Positions 2,542-6,342 of a stretch of 6,342 nucleotides of DNA are shown one piece after another. Position numbers and translations under genes: made by a program. The notes beneath the pieces were generated by a model that ran no database searches, had not been told where the DNA came from, and saw nothing but the letters and a program-made list of their open reading frames with translations. The DNA comes from a virus: IMG/VR virus record IMGVR_UViG_3300045988_001374. One strand, 5' to 3'. Position 1 is the first letter of the stretch. Each line of letters begins with the position of its first letter.

Positions 2542-2621
2542 AGACCAATAGCGTTTAAAATATAACCTAATGCAGCGGAAACAGCTCCAATTATAATCTT
2601 CCAGACATTATTACTTTTCAT
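2538..2621 (-). CDS. 27-aa single-transmembrane peptide MKSNNVWKIIIGAVSAALGYILNAIGL (candidate holin-like or membrane-acting lysis partner)
   Basis: This is the internal Met of the 74-aa track ORF 2538..2762. The ATG at 2621-2619 overlaps the end of the 64-aa ORF by 11 nt, and the TGA overlaps the peptidase ATG (ATGA at 2541-2538). One charged N-terminus plus a roughly 20-residue hydrophobic helix. Third-position T in 14/27 codons versus first-position T in 5/27, like the bona fide genes. It fills what would otherwise be a 69-nt gap. Confidence 0.4.
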   Translation of the reverse strand: MKSNNVWKIIIGAVSAALGYILNAIGL

Positions 2622-2805
2622 CACTTTGAGTTTTAAGTTCAACAAAATCGTTCTCTTCTTTAATTGAATCCACAATAACAATAAGACCCAACGGAGAAAC
2701 TCGTTCAGAATAATTTCCAAGGCCATCGAGAGAATTAACGATATAAGGCGAAATAACATCACGACCCGTAGTTTTTTCCTTAACTGAAATAATAAACTTC
2801 TGCAT
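2611..2805 (-). CDS. Hypothetical protein, 64 aa, first gene after the long intergenic region
   Basis: ORF track. Hand count gives third-position T in 36/64 codons versus first-position T in 11/64, the same periodicity as the capsid and Rep genes. The composition is soluble and mixed-charge. It is preceded by a TAnnTTTG-type promoter candidate. I recognise no family. Confidence 0.6.
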   Translation of the reverse strand: MQKFIISVKEKTTGRDVISPYIVNSLDGLGNYSERVSPLGLIVIVDSIKEENDFVELKTQSDEK

Positions 2806-2855
2806 AATTGTAATAATTTTAAATGTTAATAACAGTTGTAACTTCTAACTGGGAG

Positions 2856-2886
2856 CAAATATACAGATTATTTTCATCAAACCAAA
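2856..2886 (-). promoter_or_regulatory. Candidate Bacteroidota-type promoter (-33 TTTG / -7 TAnnTTTG) for the 64-aa ORF, peptidase and Rep module
   Basis: On the - strand, TATATTTG (reverse complement of 2856-2863) and TTTG (reverse complement of 2883-2886) are separated by 19 nt. This lies about 50 nt upstream of the ATG at 2805. Confidence 0.35.
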
Positions 2887-2942
2887 AGAAAACTGTTTTT
2901 TTTAGATTCTACTATAGAGTGTGAGTTGCGCGTTTATAGACA

Positions 2943-2958
2943 AGAGAAGGGAGAATTC
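2943..2958 (+). repeat. Direct repeat AGAGAAGGGAGAATTC, left copy, bracketing the GC-rich island
   Basis: Matches 3251-3265 (AGAGAAGGAGAATTC) apart from one extra G. Confidence 0.5.
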
Positions 2959-3088
2959 GAGAGGATAACTCGAATTTACTTCGTACGCAACTAGGGGCTT
3001 CGCTTAATTAACAAGTGGATGTATACAGGGGTGTATAGGCACGGCAGGTCAGATAGAACCTGCCTTTGCGCACTCCGTGCTAAAATAC

Positions 3089-3132
3089 CGGAGCGGGGCG
3101 CTCCTATAAGGAAGTCGCTCCGCTCCGTTTTT
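3089..3132 (+). terminator. Intrinsic-terminator-like hairpin, best on the + strand, possibly bidirectional
   Basis: 12 consecutive pairs 3089-3100/3116-3127 (CGGAGCGGGGCG / CGCTCCGCTCCG, one G.T at 3097/3119), plus 2 further pairs, followed by TTTTT at 3128-3132. Read on the - strand, the stem is preceded by AAAAA and followed by GTATTTTA, and it carries a C/A mismatch. Confidence 0.55.
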
Positions 3133-3204
3133 CGACCAGGCCCTACGCGGGCAGCGGGTGTATATCACTCAAACGCCGTGATGGGCTTCTAGTCCTGAAG
3201 TGTG

Positions 3205-3360
3205 CTATCTCAACTGGGGGTAAAGAGAATAAGTATAAGAATAATCCAATAGAGAAGGAGAATTCTGCCATAAATTAATCCATTCAACACAATCTTCCAA
3301 TGTTCCAACCTTTGAAAAAACGACTTTACGTCCAAGTTTAATTCTTAATTCGTAATACAT
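3205..3360 (-). CDS. Possible small ORF, 51 aa (MYYELRIKLGRKVVFSKVGTLEDCVEWINLWQNSPSLLDYSYTYSLYPQLR), below the ORF-track cutoff
   Basis: Hand translation: ATG at 3360-3358, TAG at 3207-3205. It lies about 30 nt downstream of a TAnnTTTG motif. The codon-position T skew is weak (T3 24/51, T1 20/51), so the coding evidence is thin. Confidence 0.3.
   Translation of the reverse strand: MYYELRIKLGRKVVFSKVGTLEDCVEWINLWQNSPSLLDYSYTYSLYPQLR
3251..3265 (+). repeat. Direct repeat AGAGAAGGAGAATTC, right copy
   Basis: Matches 2943-2958 with a 1-nt indel. It lies inside the 3' end of the 51-aa ORF. Confidence 0.5.
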
Positions 3361-3392
3361 AATATATAAGTTTTTGGTTCTTTTCTGTATTG

Positions 3393-3426
3393 CAAAGATA
3401 CGGAATAGTTTGCAAAGTACAACAAA
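3393..3426 (-). promoter_or_regulatory. Candidate Bacteroidota-type promoter downstream of VP2
   Basis: On the - strand, TATCTTTG (reverse complement of 3393-3400) and TTTG (reverse complement of 3423-3426) are separated by a 22-nt spacer, slightly long. TTGCAAAG is repeated at 3390-3397 and 3410-3417. Confidence 0.3.
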
Positions 3427-3464
3427 GTTGGAGTTAAAAAGTGTTTAGCAAATGTTAAAGTACG

Positions 3465-4607
3465 TTATCGGCCGTTATAAATAGTAGTATTACGGGGGCC
3501 ATAGTCATTACGATAGATATTAGCACCGGGACGAAACGCGCCGACAAAATTACCAGCACCGGAGGCAATACTACCAACACCACGAGCAACAGATTCCCAA
3601 TAATGAGTACGGCCTTGTTTACGAACCAAGTCTGCGCCATATTCAGCAGCTTTCTGATTAGCCATAGAAGTTTTATACTCCGTATGTTTACGAAGCTTAA
3701 CATTCTTATAATCATAAGTAGAATCACGATACTGCAATTCATTAGAGGCGTTAGCTGCCTTAATCAAAGAATCAGCCGTCTCGGAAGCTATACGATTGTC
3801 AATTTTCTTACCGGAAGCCTCAGCAGCAGTAAGAATAGCACGCTGGATTTCAGTCTGTATCTGCTTCTCAGTAAGAGCACCTTGAGACTTGAGATTGGCT
3901 AAGGTTTGAGCCTTAATAAACAAATCAGCCTGTTGATTCTGATCCATATATTTATTCATAATACGTTGAGCCTCAGAATTAAGCAAAATCTGTGTTTCTT
4001 GAGCAGCAGATATACGTTCAGCAAACTGAGCATTTTTTAGATTCTGGGCCTCAGTAGACTGGTCTAGAGCAGCAGATATACGACCTGTTTCCTTATTCCA
4101 ATAACCGGAATCACCAATAGCTAGATTCTTCCAGTTAGTAAGACCTTTATAATAGTCAGACAGAAGAGGAGTTACCGTATCAGTCTGACGTGCACGAGAG
4201 TTTGATTCACCAGCAGAAGCCTCAGAAGCCTTAGCTTGGGCAAGGGAAGCAAGAGACTGAAACACGCTAGAAAAATTAGGCTTGTAGGCCTGCATACTAG
4301 GAACAGGAGCAGCAGTAGCAGCAGCTCCGCCTGAAGCAGGAGACCTAGAACCAGCCATAGCAGCAGAGCCTTGAACAAACGGATTCAAACCACGAGAAAT
4401 CATAGCGTTAGGAGAATTGTAGGCATTATTCATACCCCACATCTGTTGCTGCCAATCACGTTGAATTTGCGCCTGTTCTGCATTAAACGCGTTCTGTTCA
4501 CGCATCATACGGAGATTAACCTTATTCTGATGATTCTGATTAACCATACCGACAACATTGTCGGTAAGGTTTGCAGCTGAAGAAGCAATAGCATCAAATA
4601 AGCCCAT
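3465..4607 (-). CDS. VP2: VP2 minor capsid / DNA pilot protein, 380 aa
   Basis: ORF track. The N-terminal region ...REQNAFNAEQAQIQRDWQQQMWGMNNAYNSPNAMISRGLNPF... resembles the conserved VP2 motif of gokusho/alpa-type microviruses (REQ-x-AFN...RDWQ...M-x-N-x-AY...GLNP). It is followed by an Ala/Gly/Ser-rich linker and a Q/A-rich, probably helical region. The start overlaps the upstream stop (TAATG at 4609-4605). Confidence 0.85.
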   Translation of the reverse strand: MGLFDAIASSAANLTDNVVGMVNQNHQNKVNLRMMREQNAFNAEQAQIQRDWQQQMWGMNNAYNSPNAMISRGLNPFVQGSAAMAGSRSPASGGAAATAAPVPSMQAYKPNFSSVFQSLASLAQAKASEASAGESNSRARQTDTVTPLLSDYYKGLTNWKNLAIGDSGYWNKETGRISAALDQSTEAQNLKNAQFAERISAAQETQILLNSEAQRIMNKYMDQNQQADLFIKAQTLANLKSQGALTEKQIQTEIQRAILTAAEASGKKIDNRIASETADSLIKAANASNELQYRDSTYDYKNVKLRKHTEYKTSMANQKAAEYGADLVRKQGRTHYWESVARGVGSIASGAGNFVGAFRPGANIYRNDYGPRNTTIYNGR

Positions 4608-5058: not shown

Positions 5059-6342
5059 TTAATAAGGTAAACCATTTCTATCCAAATTCTGTACGGCATA
5101 TACTTGGAAATTAACATTACACAGCAGCTGGTCAAATGCGACAGAGCAATTAGCAGCATCAATTTGAGGGACGAATATAGAATTCAGCTGTTGGGGACGA
5201 ACCTTCATAGACTGATAAGACCAAGCACCAGAAGAGGTCAATACTTGCCAGCCGTCAAGAGGAGCAGCCCATGACTGATAAGCAGCACCAGCACGGAAAC
5301 CGGCATGAACAGTATCAATGTTAGATTTCCACTGCCAGTAACGAAGATTATAACCAAGAGCACCAGAAACATTACGACCGGGATTATTCTGAAGATTAAG
5401 AGCAGGAACAGATTGCATACCAAGTTGGTCAAACGCAGGTTGGGGGAAGTCAGAGATAGCAGTAACAGTCAACTGGGGAGCCTGACCTGTTAAATTCCAG
5501 TCCAACATAGGTACAGCATGATATACACACATAATAATCTGATGCTCAGCACCACAATCATAAGTAAGAGTATGGCCAGAATTACTAGAGACACCTTTAC
5601 CGGCAATAGAAGCCTGCGAAGAATCGGCATCAAGATTAGTATTAACTACCTCATTGATATTGATTACACTAGACCAGCCTCCAATATAATGAGCATGATT
5701 ACCCATGTACTCGGGGGCTTTAATACCAAACTGGGCAGCCATCTGGTCTGAATAATCCTTGCTGCTGAATTGGACTACTTCTTTCCAGCGCTGAAGGTAT
5801 TCGGTTGCACGAATAGAAAGGGCGGATAAATCAGCATTTAAACGCATTTGAGCATTATTACCGGGACCAGCAGTAGAAAGAGCAACAGAAGTACCTGTAG
5901 TATTAACCAATACTCCCTGAGAAGAAGGGGCTATAATAGAAGTATTAGGAAAGTTAGACAAAGTGGAGATAGGCAAAGCAGCTACCGAACCATATTGAGA
6001 AGAAGGTAACATACCCATGAAATAGTCTTTCGGATAGTTAGCGTAACGCAGTTGAACCATATCCGTAACCAACGAAATATTGCCAGTACCAGACCAATAA
6101 TCAACATTGTAAGCATAAGCCTTGTGTTTTTCCCATTGAGAATTACTAAAGAAATCATAGTAAATCTTCTGATAAGCAAGGAACGGAAGAGCATTAACCG
6201 TCTGCGAAGTCTGATAAACCAAAGGATTATTAGCATCACCAAGAGCATCAACACCTAGATATTTCTTAGTAATAGCAGCCTTACCAGTATTAGTAGAAGC
6301 AATCATAGAACCATAACCAAGCATATCAAGCAGCTTACAAGA
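5059..6342 (-). CDS. VP1: Major capsid protein VP1, C-terminal part (frame open to the window end; 6254-6342 duplicates 1-89)
   Basis: The ORF track gives 5059..6324 from an internal Met. The frame stays open to 6342 and joins 1..533 through the repeat. TAA stop at 5061-5059. Confidence 0.9.
   Translation of the reverse strand, partial: SCKLLDMLGYGSMIASTNTGKAAITKKYLGVDALGDANNPLVYQTSQTVNALPFLAYQKIYYDFFSNSQWEKHKAYAYNVDYWSGTGNISLVTDMVQLRYANYPKDYFMGMLPSSQYGSVAALPISTLSNFPNTSIIAPSSQGVLVNTTGTSVALSTAGPGNNAQMRLNADLSALSIRATEYLQRWKEVVQFSSKDYSDQMAAQFGIKAPEYMGNHAHYIGGWSSVININEVVNTNLDADSSQASIAGKGVSSNSGHTLTYDCGAEHQIIMCVYHAVPMLDWNLTGQAPQLTVTAISDFPQPAFDQLGMQSVPALNLQNNPGRNVSGALGYNLRYWQWKSNIDTVHAGFRAGAAYQSWAAPLDGWQVLTSSGAWSYQSMKVRPQQLNSIFVPQIDAANCSVAFDQLLCNVNFQVYAVQNLDRNGLPY
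6254..6342. repeat. Terminal redundancy, copy 2 (identical to 1..89)
   Basis: Exact 89-nt identity with the window start. Confidence 0.95.

Follow-up and report, generated by a model that had tools for sequence, protein, structure and literature searches.

Mammals harbor few phages more abundant than gut microviruses, almost none of which has been cultured. Every microvirus, to our knowledge, needs a start site for its complementary strand, and we know of the conversion of a single-stranded into a double-stranded genome only for the coliphages phiX174, G4, St-1, and alpha3. The primosome assembly site of phiX174 is a single hairpin region of ~55 nt. The viral-strand origin of the same phage spans 30 nt and reads CAACTTG^ATATTAATAAC; besides CAACTTG^ATA it contains a key binding sequence and a spacer rich in A+T. 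In phiX174, as in G4, the Rep gene contains this origin. GCGAAGC and GCGAAAGC form extraordinarily stable mini-hairpins as DNA, the RNA versions being much less stable, and CGGCGAAAGCCG is found at the primase site of G4, GCGTTAGC at the sites of St-1 and alpha3, and CCGAAGG in ssiA of RSF1010 (PMC13037366). In other uncultured microviruses, conserved spacer hairpins have been proposed as the start of the negative strand (PMC9865509). Our search of the literature on structured RNAs in microviruses found nothing relevant.

The window analyzed here, the whole 6,342-nucleotide stretch of IMG/VR record IMGVR_UViG_3300045988_001374, is a circular microvirus genome in which every long open reading frame (ORF) lies on the minus strand, referred to below as the gene-sense or sense strand. 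The spacer between VP2 and a 64-aa ORF (2806-3464) measures 659 nt, or 10.5% of the 6257-nt genome, in agreement with the sequence-only reading, which had described it as unusually long at about 10%. The spacer holds the following features:

2919-3200, minus strand: the whole conserved structured element, supported by conservation in relatives and by formal pair counts
2856-2863, minus strand: Bacteroidota-type -7 promoter box TATATTTG, upstream of the 64-aa ORF (2805-2611)
3393-3400, minus strand: Bacteroidota-type -7 box TATCTTTG, upstream of a 51-aa ORF (3360-3205)

Bacteroidota -7 boxes flank the island on both sides and on the gene strand only, and the host of this phage is probably a member of the Bacteroidota. 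Scans for sigma-70 promoters and terminators gave nothing above chance except the P7 hairpin described below. The phage encodes no dedicated primase. The G+C content, which changes sharply at the element boundaries, is 52% over 2921-3205 and 58% over 3043-3200, compared with 23.5% and 30.5% in the flanks and ~40% in the genome; the earlier value of ~58% for the core is thus correct for 3043-3200 and too high for 2921-3205, and the flanks had been put at about 20 to 30%. The gene-sense strand of the island indeed lacks an ATG, and the direct repeats noted before are present (GGGTGTATA at 3029 and 3156, GGGCTTC at 2995 and 3183). A plus strand ORF of 57 aa (3019-3192) was rejected as a gene since indels break it in relatives, as were the “hypothetical proteins” that some records annotate over the island, which are not conserved. 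Annotators should treat such calls over the spacer with caution, as they are probably not genes.

The element is 74-88% identical in 34 GenBank microviruses and ~130 IMG/VR contigs, and the clade that carries it comprises at least ~130 genomes, from humans, dogs, lemurs, and rodents. It occupies the same spacer position in all relatives, in most of them directly after the VP2 stop codon, and its identity of 80-88% exceeds the genome average of ~75%, the element diverging in step with the phage genomes. A search of Rfam 15 on both strands at a permissive E-value gave a best match of E=3, far below the gathering score, so that the island matches no Rfam family; the sequence-only reading had not recognized a known RNA family either. 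The corresponding loci of mar56 and Dulem 245, two distant lineages, gave nothing in Rfam, and ARAGORN detected neither a tRNA nor a tmRNA in the island. When the island was compared by blastn with 50,697 phage records, G4 included, only gut microviruses were retrieved.

Such an island could also be host DNA that was passively captured, or a small mobile insertion, without function for the phage, a role that had been listed among the candidates. A G+C content of 52-58% in a ~40% genome, the sharp boundaries, and the modular content of the spacer would be compatible with capture. However, the island had no match in a plasmid collection, and a 21-base pattern had none in 185,579 bacterial and archaeal species genomes (one genome each). 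The constant position in all relatives, a divergence that parallels that of the phage with conservation nevertheless above the genome average, and the compensatory changes presented next, which imply selection on the fold, also speak against capture, and we find it hardly credible. In a separate search of the same genomes with the capsid protein, no integrated relatives turned up, and hence neither a host nor an attachment junction.

Pairing was tested on 114 unique homologues and, separately, on 76 dereplicated ones; RNAalifold on the raw MAFFT alignment yielded a poor consensus, and mutual information and helix enumeration were used instead. The island is a real, conserved multi-hairpin structure. 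Compensatory changes support nine helices, among them the eight covarying hairpins P1, P2, the 2978-2984 mini-hairpin, and P5 to P9. In the 76 dereplicated elements 98.2% of cells are paired, against 24-42% with the partners slid, and 20 of the 44 pairs have changed on both sides. Doubly changed cells number 211, compared with 62 +/- 6 in shuffles (0 of 500 shuffles reach 211). These compensatory changes indicate that selection acts on the fold. The two strands also fold better than dinucleotide-shuffled controls, with RNA parameters (z of -4.0 for the plus and -3.9 for the minus strand) and with DNA parameters (-3.6 and -4.3, the sense strand being slightly better), which bears out the description of the island as densely base-paired. 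The parts of the element are these:

2919-3012, minus strand: domain A, the core module and the only part common to the distant lineages mar56 and the Dulem 245 branch
2924-2992, minus strand: helix P1, 2924-2930 with 2986-2992, enclosing P2 and one mini-hairpin
2931-2944, minus strand: nearly invariant unpaired block, sense CTTGTCTATAAACG, conserved in the window clade and mar56
2954-2976, minus strand: helix P2, 2954-2961 with 2969-2976, with a 7-nt loop (sense TTATCCT); 7 of 8 pairs changed on both sides
2978-2984, minus strand: mini-hairpin, sense ACGAAGT in the window; closing pair covaries GC/CG/AT
2997-3003, minus strand: mini-hairpin, sense GCGAAGC in the window and GGCGAAAGCC in the Dulem 245 branch, a 10-mer also present in G4 hairpin I
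3004-3012, minus strand: A+T-rich block, sense GTTAATTAA; its edge at 3012/3013 is a homology break and hairpin insertion point
3013-3037, minus strand: hairpin 3022-3027 with 3032-3037, variable and dispensable; the Dulem 254 type lacks it, and others have a larger form
3043-3064, minus strand: helix P5, 3043-3048 with 3059-3064; 3 pairs changed on both sides
3070-3080, minus strand: helix P6, 3070-3073 with 3077-3080; pair 3072-3078 is AT in 86 and GC in 28, with no exception
3081-3089, minus strand: invariant block, sense GGTATTTTA, which with P7 resembles a sense-strand intrinsic terminator
3090-3104, minus strand: helix P7, 3090-3095 with 3099-3104; pair 3091-3103 is GC in 72 and AT in 37
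3114-3126, minus strand: invariant block, sense GGAGCGGAGCGAC, holding the mini-hairpin GCGGAGC (3123-3117)
3140-3152, minus strand: helix P8, 3140-3143 with 3149-3152, sense loop GCGTA; pair 3143-3149 is CG in 110 and TA in 4
3164-3182, minus strand: helix P9, 3164-3168 with 3178-3182; pair 3167-3179 is GC in 101, AT in 7, and CG in 4

Eight helices had been drawn by hand from the sequence, of which three were wrong and one was only partly right. Compensatory changes confirmed 2924-2930/2986-2992, 2953-2961/2969-2977, and 3043-3049/3058-3064. A local hairpin covaries in place of each of the three that failed, namely 2978-79/2983-84 for 2946-2949/2979-2982, 3140-43/3149-52 for 3138-3143/3183-3188, and 3070-73/3077-80 for the long-range closing helix 3068-3074/3199-3205. 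Helix 3089-3100/3116-3127 is supported in part, its covarying portion being the local hairpin 3090-3095/3099-3104, and 3022-3027/3032-3037 is mostly compatible with the data but sits in the variable, dispensable hairpin. The 5' arm of P7 can alternatively pair with 3116-3127, and pair 3096-3120 of this long hairpin is GC in 102 and AT in 7. The invariant block GATATACACCCGC (sense, 3166-3154) precedes P9.

The element is built of two domains, of which domain A is the only part kept where the rest is replaced; domain B (3029-3200) is replaceable, and the content of the spacer is modular. P1 occurs in ten complementary versions over the lineages (e.g., AGTTGCG/CGCAACT, AGTTCAA/TTGAACT, ATTTCTA/TAGAAAT, and ACTTATC/GATAAGT), and in mar56 and the Dulem 245 branch both P1 and P2 are entirely rewritten in sequence with complementarity kept, P2 reading GTTTTCGG/CCGAAAAY. 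The unpaired block at 2931-2944, which is followed by a pyrimidine-rich run (2945-2952), is CTTGCCTTATATTAG in the Dulem 245 branch. At 2978-2984 most relatives have GCGAAGC or CCGAAGG, the latter in 29 of 114 by motif count (the closing pair is CG in 36 of 114), and the Dulem 245 branch has CCC-GNAA-GGG, with the loop variants GAAA, GUAA, GCAA, and GGAA; in the sense reading only the N of G-N-A-A varies.

The presence of domain A in all lineages could point to a viral-strand (rolling-circle) origin, and HUH nucleases usually cut DNA shown in or beside hairpins. Domain A would then present the nick site of Rep (VP4), the hairpins would position Rep, and domain B could be a separate complementary-strand origin. 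Candidate nick sites are CCACTTG^TTAATTAAG (sense, 3012/3013) and CTTG^TCTATAAACG in the unpaired block (2944-2931). The sense sequence ACTTG, with TTAATTAA after it, is reminiscent of CAACTTG^ATATTAATAAC at the phiX174 origin, and it is exactly at 3012/3013 that the lineages cease to be homologous and that additional hairpins have been inserted, rolling-circle nick sites being known recombination hotspots. The bases 5' of the putative nick, however, vary by lineage (CTTG, TATG, TGTG, TTTG, and ACTG), the Dulem 245 branch lacks the A+T-rich 8-mer, and a minority has CTCG in place of the CTTG of the unpaired block. The element contains no CAACTTG, the sense strand having only the partial likeness CCACTTG-TTAATTAAG, and the resemblance to phiX174 (TATAGAC, CTTG...TTAAT), which is no more than a lead, is short, non-collinear, and of a kind expected by chance. 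Moreover, the counterpart origin of phiX174 and G4 is inside the Rep gene. We regard a rolling-circle origin as doubtful.

Which strand folds was addressed through wobble pairs and loop motifs. The G.T wobbles accepted in the sequence-only reading had hinted at the plus (antisense) strand, and a bias of the search toward that strand had been suspected, rightly: G.U and A.C cells are equally rare outside one long-range helix. An initial signal for a plus strand fold (731 G.U versus 26 A.C cells) came from that helix, of 11 bp (2990-3000/3183-3193), and the counts are equal without it. The plus strand fold was rejected, as the helix shows one-sided changes only, has a length that is about chance for 290 nt, clashes with the conserved mini-hairpin at 2997-3003, and has a 5' arm that is invariant even in genomes without the partner. 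In the 76 dereplicated elements G.U cells make up <1% of 3305, most of them from one misaligned pair.

These data bear on a structured noncoding RNA of ~280 nt and of a new class, which would be transcribed from the plus strand against all phage genes. Consistent with it are a plus strand RNA fold 21 kcal/mol better than shuffles (z -4.0), the 11-bp helix and a change from G.U to G-C in the basal pair of P2 that work on the plus strand only, and a T-run that in Dulem 245 comes after the helix closing domain A. That T-run, however, is found in only 3 of the 8 genomes of the Dulem 245 branch, and G.U and A.C cells are equally rare outside the 11-bp helix. Near the element the plus strand lacks a Bacteroidota promoter box, Rfam gives no match, and the small plus strand loops (UUC/UUNC) have no known meaning, whereas their complements are classic motifs. 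An antisense RNA is very improbable.

These complements were counted as xCGNAGx' and xCGNNAGx'. The element in the window has four on the sense and none on the plus strand (mean in dinucleotide shuffles 0.69, P=0.0034), namely GCGAAGC (3003-2997), GCGGAGC (3123-3117), ACGGAGT (3078-3072), formed by the sense loop of P6, and ACGAAGT (2984-2978). Over 114 elements the means are 3.3 on the sense and 0.27 on the other strand, and the respective counts are 8 and 0 in the mar56 spacer and 5 and 1 in Dulem 245. In the spacer after the pilot-protein gene of five gut microvirus genomes, the sense strand carries 21 motifs and the opposite strand 1, compared with 27 and 43, respectively, in the rest of those genomes (Fisher P=1.2e-6). 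As a positive control, GCGAAAGC (3977) in the G4 record falls within the primer site annotated at 3970-3997, and G4 likewise has a G+C-rich island in its F-G spacer (136 nt; 58%, compared with 46% in the whole genome). The strand specificity of the motifs overturns the hint at the plus strand: the functional reading strand is most likely the gene-sense strand, judging from the motif counts, and the structure would act as DNA and not as RNA. By analogy with phiX174, G4, and gokushoviruses, in which this is a family property, the gene-sense strand would also be the packaged strand.

A structured noncoding RNA or 3' untranslated region had also been proposed. On the sense strand the element could be the structured 3' end of a late mRNA (after VP2 or the 51-aa ORF), serving as terminator and as barrier to 3' exonucleases. 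One transcription unit should end at the element, because a gene-strand promoter follows it, and in most relatives VP2 stops directly before it. The terminator scan flags P7, GGAGCGCCCCGCTCC followed by GGTATTTTAG, with a short and interrupted U-run, and the long form of the P7 hairpin tolerates G.U on the sense strand only. Sense-strand RNA fits part of the evidence, since the GNRA-type sense-strand loops of the Dulem 245 branch (GAAA, GUAA, GCAA, and GGAA) are typical of RNA too. A terminator, however, can do without a length of 280 nt and without long invariant unpaired blocks, the candidate terminator is upstream of domain A, and no terminator-like site was found in the mar56 spacer. Furthermore, the stability of GNA triloop mini-hairpins is specific to DNA, and wobble pairs are almost absent. 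An RNA role is less likely than a complementary-strand origin, and a late mRNA 3' end is unlikely. A transcribed new RNA class of gut microviruses, as an antisense regulator or a sense 3' domain beyond termination, with the mini-hairpins incidental, seems improbable.

We favor, with a probability of roughly one half, a cis-acting replication element that would work as folded single-stranded DNA of the viral strand and serve as complementary-strand origin, a function deduced from sequence. A complementary-strand origin or primosome-loading structure was among the roles first proposed, and the covarying fold, the sense-strand DNA mini-hairpins, and the motif of the G4 primer site argue for it. 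We count on the same side the DNA-like pairing (G.U in <1% of 3305 cells), the better sense-strand fold with DNA parameters (z -4.3 versus -3.6), and the missing promoter box for an antisense RNA. After entry of the circular single-stranded genome into the cell, host single-strand binding protein would coat all but the stable hairpins. Those persisting would be the eight covarying ones (P1, P2, the 2978-2984 mini-hairpin, and P5 to P9) and three further GNA-loop mini-hairpin motifs (GCGAAGC, GCGGAGC, and ACGGAGT). The resulting protein-free, partly duplex patch would be recognized by the host priming machinery. This could be primase, working directly in the manner known from G4, St-1, and alpha3; a primosome of the PriA type, like that of phiX174; or RNA polymerase, the enzyme used by M13 and by the sso sites of plasmids. 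The primer made there would start the complementary strand, and the genome would be converted to the double-stranded replicative form.

Several points weigh against a complementary-strand origin. The packaged strand is taken from phiX174, G4, and gokushoviruses and not from the window clade, and the island has no sequence similarity to the origins of G4, phiX174, or plasmids. At ~280 nt it is much larger than the G4 origin (F-G spacer, 136 nt), and priming does not account for the long invariant unpaired blocks. Read in sense, P7 and the GGTATTTTAG after it may be no more than the terminator of the late operon. Finally, the basal pair of P2 is G.T on the plus strand in two lineages and G-C in a third, and the 11-bp helix is possible on the plus strand only.

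The element offers a sequence-defined candidate signal for second-strand synthesis in a large clade of at least ~130 genomes; its secondary structure has been tested, and the targets for mutation are clear. The data suggest that clusters of sense-strand GNA-loop mini-hairpins may be a general, so far unused signature of single-strand replication signals in uncultured single-stranded DNA phages, an interpretation better supported than that of a new RNA class. The 21-to-1 strand bias in five unrelated gut microviruses and the G4 control point to a computational marker, which would locate such origins and the packaged strand in metagenomic single-stranded DNA phages.

The closest described counterparts are the primase-dependent origins of G4, St-1, and alpha3 (Bullavirinae). 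Like these, the island is a G+C-rich stretch in a noncoding microvirus spacer, and the DNA mini-hairpin GCGNAGC or GCGNNAGC is present in it too, the Dulem 245 branch carrying the same GGCGAAAGCC as G4 hairpin I. Its several stable hairpins would also lie on the viral strand if, as assumed from the family, the gene-sense strand is the packaged one. Unlike them, it has no detectable sequence similarity to their origins, and it has long invariant unpaired blocks and a probable Bacteroidota host. Those origins comprise ~130 nt with three hairpins and one mini-hairpin, compared with ~280 nt, two domains, and 3-4 mini-hairpins here, and the G4 origin lies between F and G, whereas the island follows the pilot-protein gene.

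The sso origins (ssoA, ssoU, ssoT, and ssoW), the M13 minus-strand origin, and ssiA/ssiB of RSF1010 resemble the island in being noncoding, highly paired, and cassette-like, exchangeable between related replicons; they are orientation-specific, measure 150-300 nt, and work only as single-stranded DNA. The CCGAAGG of ssiA is the form of 2978-2984 in about 1/4 to 1/3 of the relatives. The island differs from the sso and ssi origins in lacking sequence similarity to plasmids, and an ssoA-type origin was rejected because CS-6, the ssoA marker hexamer TAGCGT/A found in a terminal loop, is absent from both strands of 2919-3200. The phiX174 primosome assembly site (n'/PriA) is, by description, likewise a hairpin region of a microvirus spacer that nucleates complementary-strand priming (PMC9865509). 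Spacer hairpins of the reekeekee- and roodoodoo-microviruses, also uncultured, show compensatory substitutions and have been proposed as the negative-strand start, with 1-2 simple hairpins of 13-64 nt (PMC9865509); the island, from a different clade, has two domains, nine helices, and strand-specific mini-hairpins.

The first and last 85 nt of the window are identical (1-85 and 6258-6342), which makes it a complete circular microvirus genome of 6257 nt with an 85-nt overlap; the capsid gene crosses the circle junction. All long ORFs lie on the minus strand (the gene strand) and were named from annotated relatives as replication initiator, peptidase, major capsid protein, scaffold, and DNA pilot protein (VP2). 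The long spacer noted in the sequence-only reading, about 10% of the genome, accounts for 10.5% and is arranged as follows.

2611-2805, minus strand, 64-aa ORF
2806-3464, spacer between the pilot-protein gene and the 64-aa ORF, holding the island (2919-3200) and one small ORF
3205-3360, minus strand, 51-aa ORF between VP2 and the island
3465-4607, minus strand, pilot-protein gene (VP2)

The 51-aa ORF has its own Bacteroidota-type promoter (TTTG ... TATCTTTG, box at 3393-3400, minus strand) and is common to Dulem viruses 254 and 255, whose records label it a hypothetical protein; most relatives lack it, and in them VP2 directly adjoins the island. Two TAnnTTTG boxes (Bacteroidota-type -7) flank the island on the gene strand, at 2856-2863 and 3393-3400. 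Judged solely from such boxes, with their upstream TTTG, the host would belong to the Bacteroidota. Just outside the element, 2896-2912 reads on the + strand as 6-10 T then (A)GATTCTAC, and on the gene strand as GTAGAATCT then an A-run; the T-run keeps its position across the clade and also occurs in two distant lineages, mar56 and the Dulem virus 245 branch. Divergent lineages repeat the order element, A-run, promoter (e.g., around 500-540 in L197). As first described, no ATG occurs within the island on the gene strand; the 58% G+C attributed to the island holds for 3043-3200 and drops to 52% over 2921-3205, with flanks of 23-31%. A 57-aa + strand ORF (3019-3192) and several database "hypothetical protein" calls (e.g., L003 412-708 and L005 706-1032) overlap the island and are probably annotation artefacts, because indels among relatives disrupt them.

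IMG/VR contig 3300045988_001507 carries an identical copy of the element. In GenBank, the closest genomes are those of dog-faecal Microviridae, lemur "Dulem viruses," and one human isolate. In 34 GenBank microviruses the island shows 74-88% identity, whereas its flanks are not always conserved, and about 130 IMG/VR contigs of microvirus size that carry it emerged from pattern scans and a profile search. Capture of host DNA, an origin proposed earlier, was rejected as extremely improbable after neither plasmids nor one genome from each of 185,579 bacterial and archaeal species gave a match. On either strand the fold is more stable than that of dinucleotide shuffles, with z about -4 for both using RNA parameters, and -4.3 on the gene strand versus -3.6 on the other using DNA parameters. 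Covarying, all-Watson-Crick pairs were recovered by mutual information with no energy model, and nine helices were fixed and then counted on 76 sequences dereplicated at 95%.

2924-30/2986-92, helix P1
2954-61/2969-76, helix P2
2978-79/2983-84, helix
2997-98/3002-03, helix
3043-48/3059-64, helix P5
3070-73/3077-80, helix P6
3090-95/3099-3104, helix P7
3140-43/3149-52, helix P8
3164-68/3178-82, helix P9

Paired cells amount to 98.2%, against 24-42% with partners slid, and 20 of the 44 pairs change on both sides. Doubly changed cells number 211, compared with 62 ± 6 in shuffles (0/500 reach 211), although kinship among the sequences makes these shuffle statistics overstate independence. All homologues are metagenomic. 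Pairing and compensatory changes therefore show that the island structure is under selection. Despite this kinship, domain A (2919-3012) is independently supported by three deep lineages. The original observation of the island is largely real. Both short direct repeats are present, and the eight hand-drawn helices divide into three that are fully confirmed, one mostly compatible, one partly right, and three wrong.

Four homologues (L136, L143, L148, and L153) keep only 2919-3012, followed by unrelated sequence, L131 has a partial deletion, and other genomes carry extra hairpins at 3012/3013, the edge of an A+T-rich block. These insertions (an extra 30-140 nt in L002, around 760-800, L014, L073, L047, and others) are often hairpins of the type CCTAGATC...GATCTAGG and resemble a small mobile or duplicated module. 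A Rep nick origin at the gene-strand junction CCACTTG|TTAATTAAG, a junction that is reminiscent of the phiX174 origin and coincides with the recombination hotspot, is doubtful, as conservation is lacking on the 5' side and the A+T block is missing in one branch.

In Microvirus mar56 (L195), with which only 34% of the genome is shared at the DNA level, the island was not detected by blastn; domain A is nonetheless present at the same genomic position, with both helices rewritten (ATTTCTA/TAGAAAT; GTTTTCGG/CCGAAAAT) and the unpaired blocks retained. A third branch, made up of Dulem virus 245 and seven IMG/VR genomes, repeats this architecture with different helix sequences, plus an outer closing helix. 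Domain A is thus the old core, and domain B (3029-3200) an exchangeable partner. Past domain A, the mar56 spacer (3401-3790) is rich in direct repeats (ACACCTGCGGA, TTCCGTACTCCA, and GCTGCGCTGTGGGGAAT, each twice), most families of which hold a gene-strand mini-hairpin (CCGCAGG in the ACACCTGCGGA family, GCGCAGC in the GCTGCGCTGTGGGGAAT family); GCGTAGC occurs twice.

The suggestion that the + strand folds did not survive. An 11-bp helix available only on that strand, 2990-3000/3183-3193, shows 731 G.U versus 26 A.C cells; sporadic G.U and A.C counts are equal once it is omitted, its every change is a one-sided transition opposite G or T, its 5' arm is invariant even in genomes without the partner, and it overlaps a conserved mini-hairpin. 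The small hairpin loops are UUC or UUNC on the + strand, a meaningless reading. Taken from the gene strand, the hairpins read GCGAAGC, GCGGAGC, ACGGAGT, ACGAAGT, and CCGAAGG, and in the Dulem 245 branch GGCGAAAGCC and CCC-GNAA-GGG (N = A, U, C or G). They are GCGNAGC and GCGNNAGC, DNA motifs of the "extraordinarily stable mini-hairpin" class.

Mini-hairpins on the gene strand and the other strand
Window element: 4 and 0
Mean over 114 unique elements: 3.3 and 0.27
mar56 spacer (otherwise unrelated, repeat-rich): 8 and 0
Dulem 245 spacer: 5 and 1
Post-pilot-gene spacer in five gut microviruses, of which two are unrelated to the element: 21 and 1
Remainder of the same five genomes: 27 and 43

Gene-strand dinucleotide shuffles of the window element average 0.69 mini-hairpins (P=0.0034). 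The strand bias in the five genomes (binomial P=1e-5, Fisher P=1.2e-6) is accompanied by densities of 6.5 per kb in spacers versus about 1 per kb elsewhere. Long post-pilot-gene spacers of unrelated gut microviruses, namely, bajarodmic virus 410 (L206, 3413-4254), Tortoise microvirus 40 (L207, 3653-4634), and Dulem virus 257 (L196, 3407-3580), have mini-hairpins on the gene strand only (GCGTAGC, CCGAAGG, GCGTAAGC), which hints at a general signature and possibly at other, non-homologous origin cassettes.

Three points favor, but do not prove, action of the island as DNA. Structured RNAs usually hold many more wobble pairs than these helices, where they make up <1% of 3305 cells and a single misaligned pair accounts for most of them. 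An independent RNA would lack a promoter box, both -7 boxes (TAnnTTTG) of the spacer being on the gene strand, and an antisense RNA is very improbable. Finally, it is in DNA and not in RNA that mini-hairpins with GNA triloops are special, their RNA counterparts being far less stable (r(GCGAAAGC) has a Tm of 39 C), according to a 2026 review by the motif discoverers (PMC13037366). The same review places CGGCGAAAGCCG at the site of primer synthesis by primase on G4 viral DNA, GCGTTAGC at this site in St-1 and alpha3, CCGAAGG in RSF1010 ssiA, and GGA and GAA loops in N4 virion RNA polymerase promoters. A late-mRNA 3' end or terminator, to which P7 followed by GGTATTTTAG would be suited, is unlikely and leaves unexplained the element size, the invariant blocks, and domain A beyond P7.

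The packaged strand is the gene strand in every studied microvirus, and the G4 record annotates its complementary-strand origin on the gene strand; the island is therefore read as folded viral-strand DNA, and this phage would by analogy package its gene strand. We give even odds (about 0.5) to the island being a complementary-strand origin, with an inferred priming function. Folded in this way, the viral-strand DNA would escape coating by single-strand binding protein and could then recruit the host priming machinery to start the complementary strand. The GGAGCG arm has a local pairing partner but can instead pair with one or the other of two GCTCC copies downstream, reminiscent of the switch from hairpin to mini-hairpin that has been proposed for G4.

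This kind of element is already known, since conserved spacer hairpins of other uncultured microviruses were suggested as negative-strand origins (PMC9865509). The large two-domain element and its mini-hairpin signature appear to be undescribed, literature searches having turned up nothing. The G4 F-G spacer, used as positive control, is likewise a G+C-rich island, and its only gene-strand mini-hairpin motif, GCGAAAGC at 3977, falls inside the annotated primer site (3970-3997). The proposed working resembles that of the G4, St-1, and alpha3 origins, the phiX174 primosome site, plasmid sso and ssi signals, and the M13 minus origin, a likeness of function and not of sequence membership in any of them.
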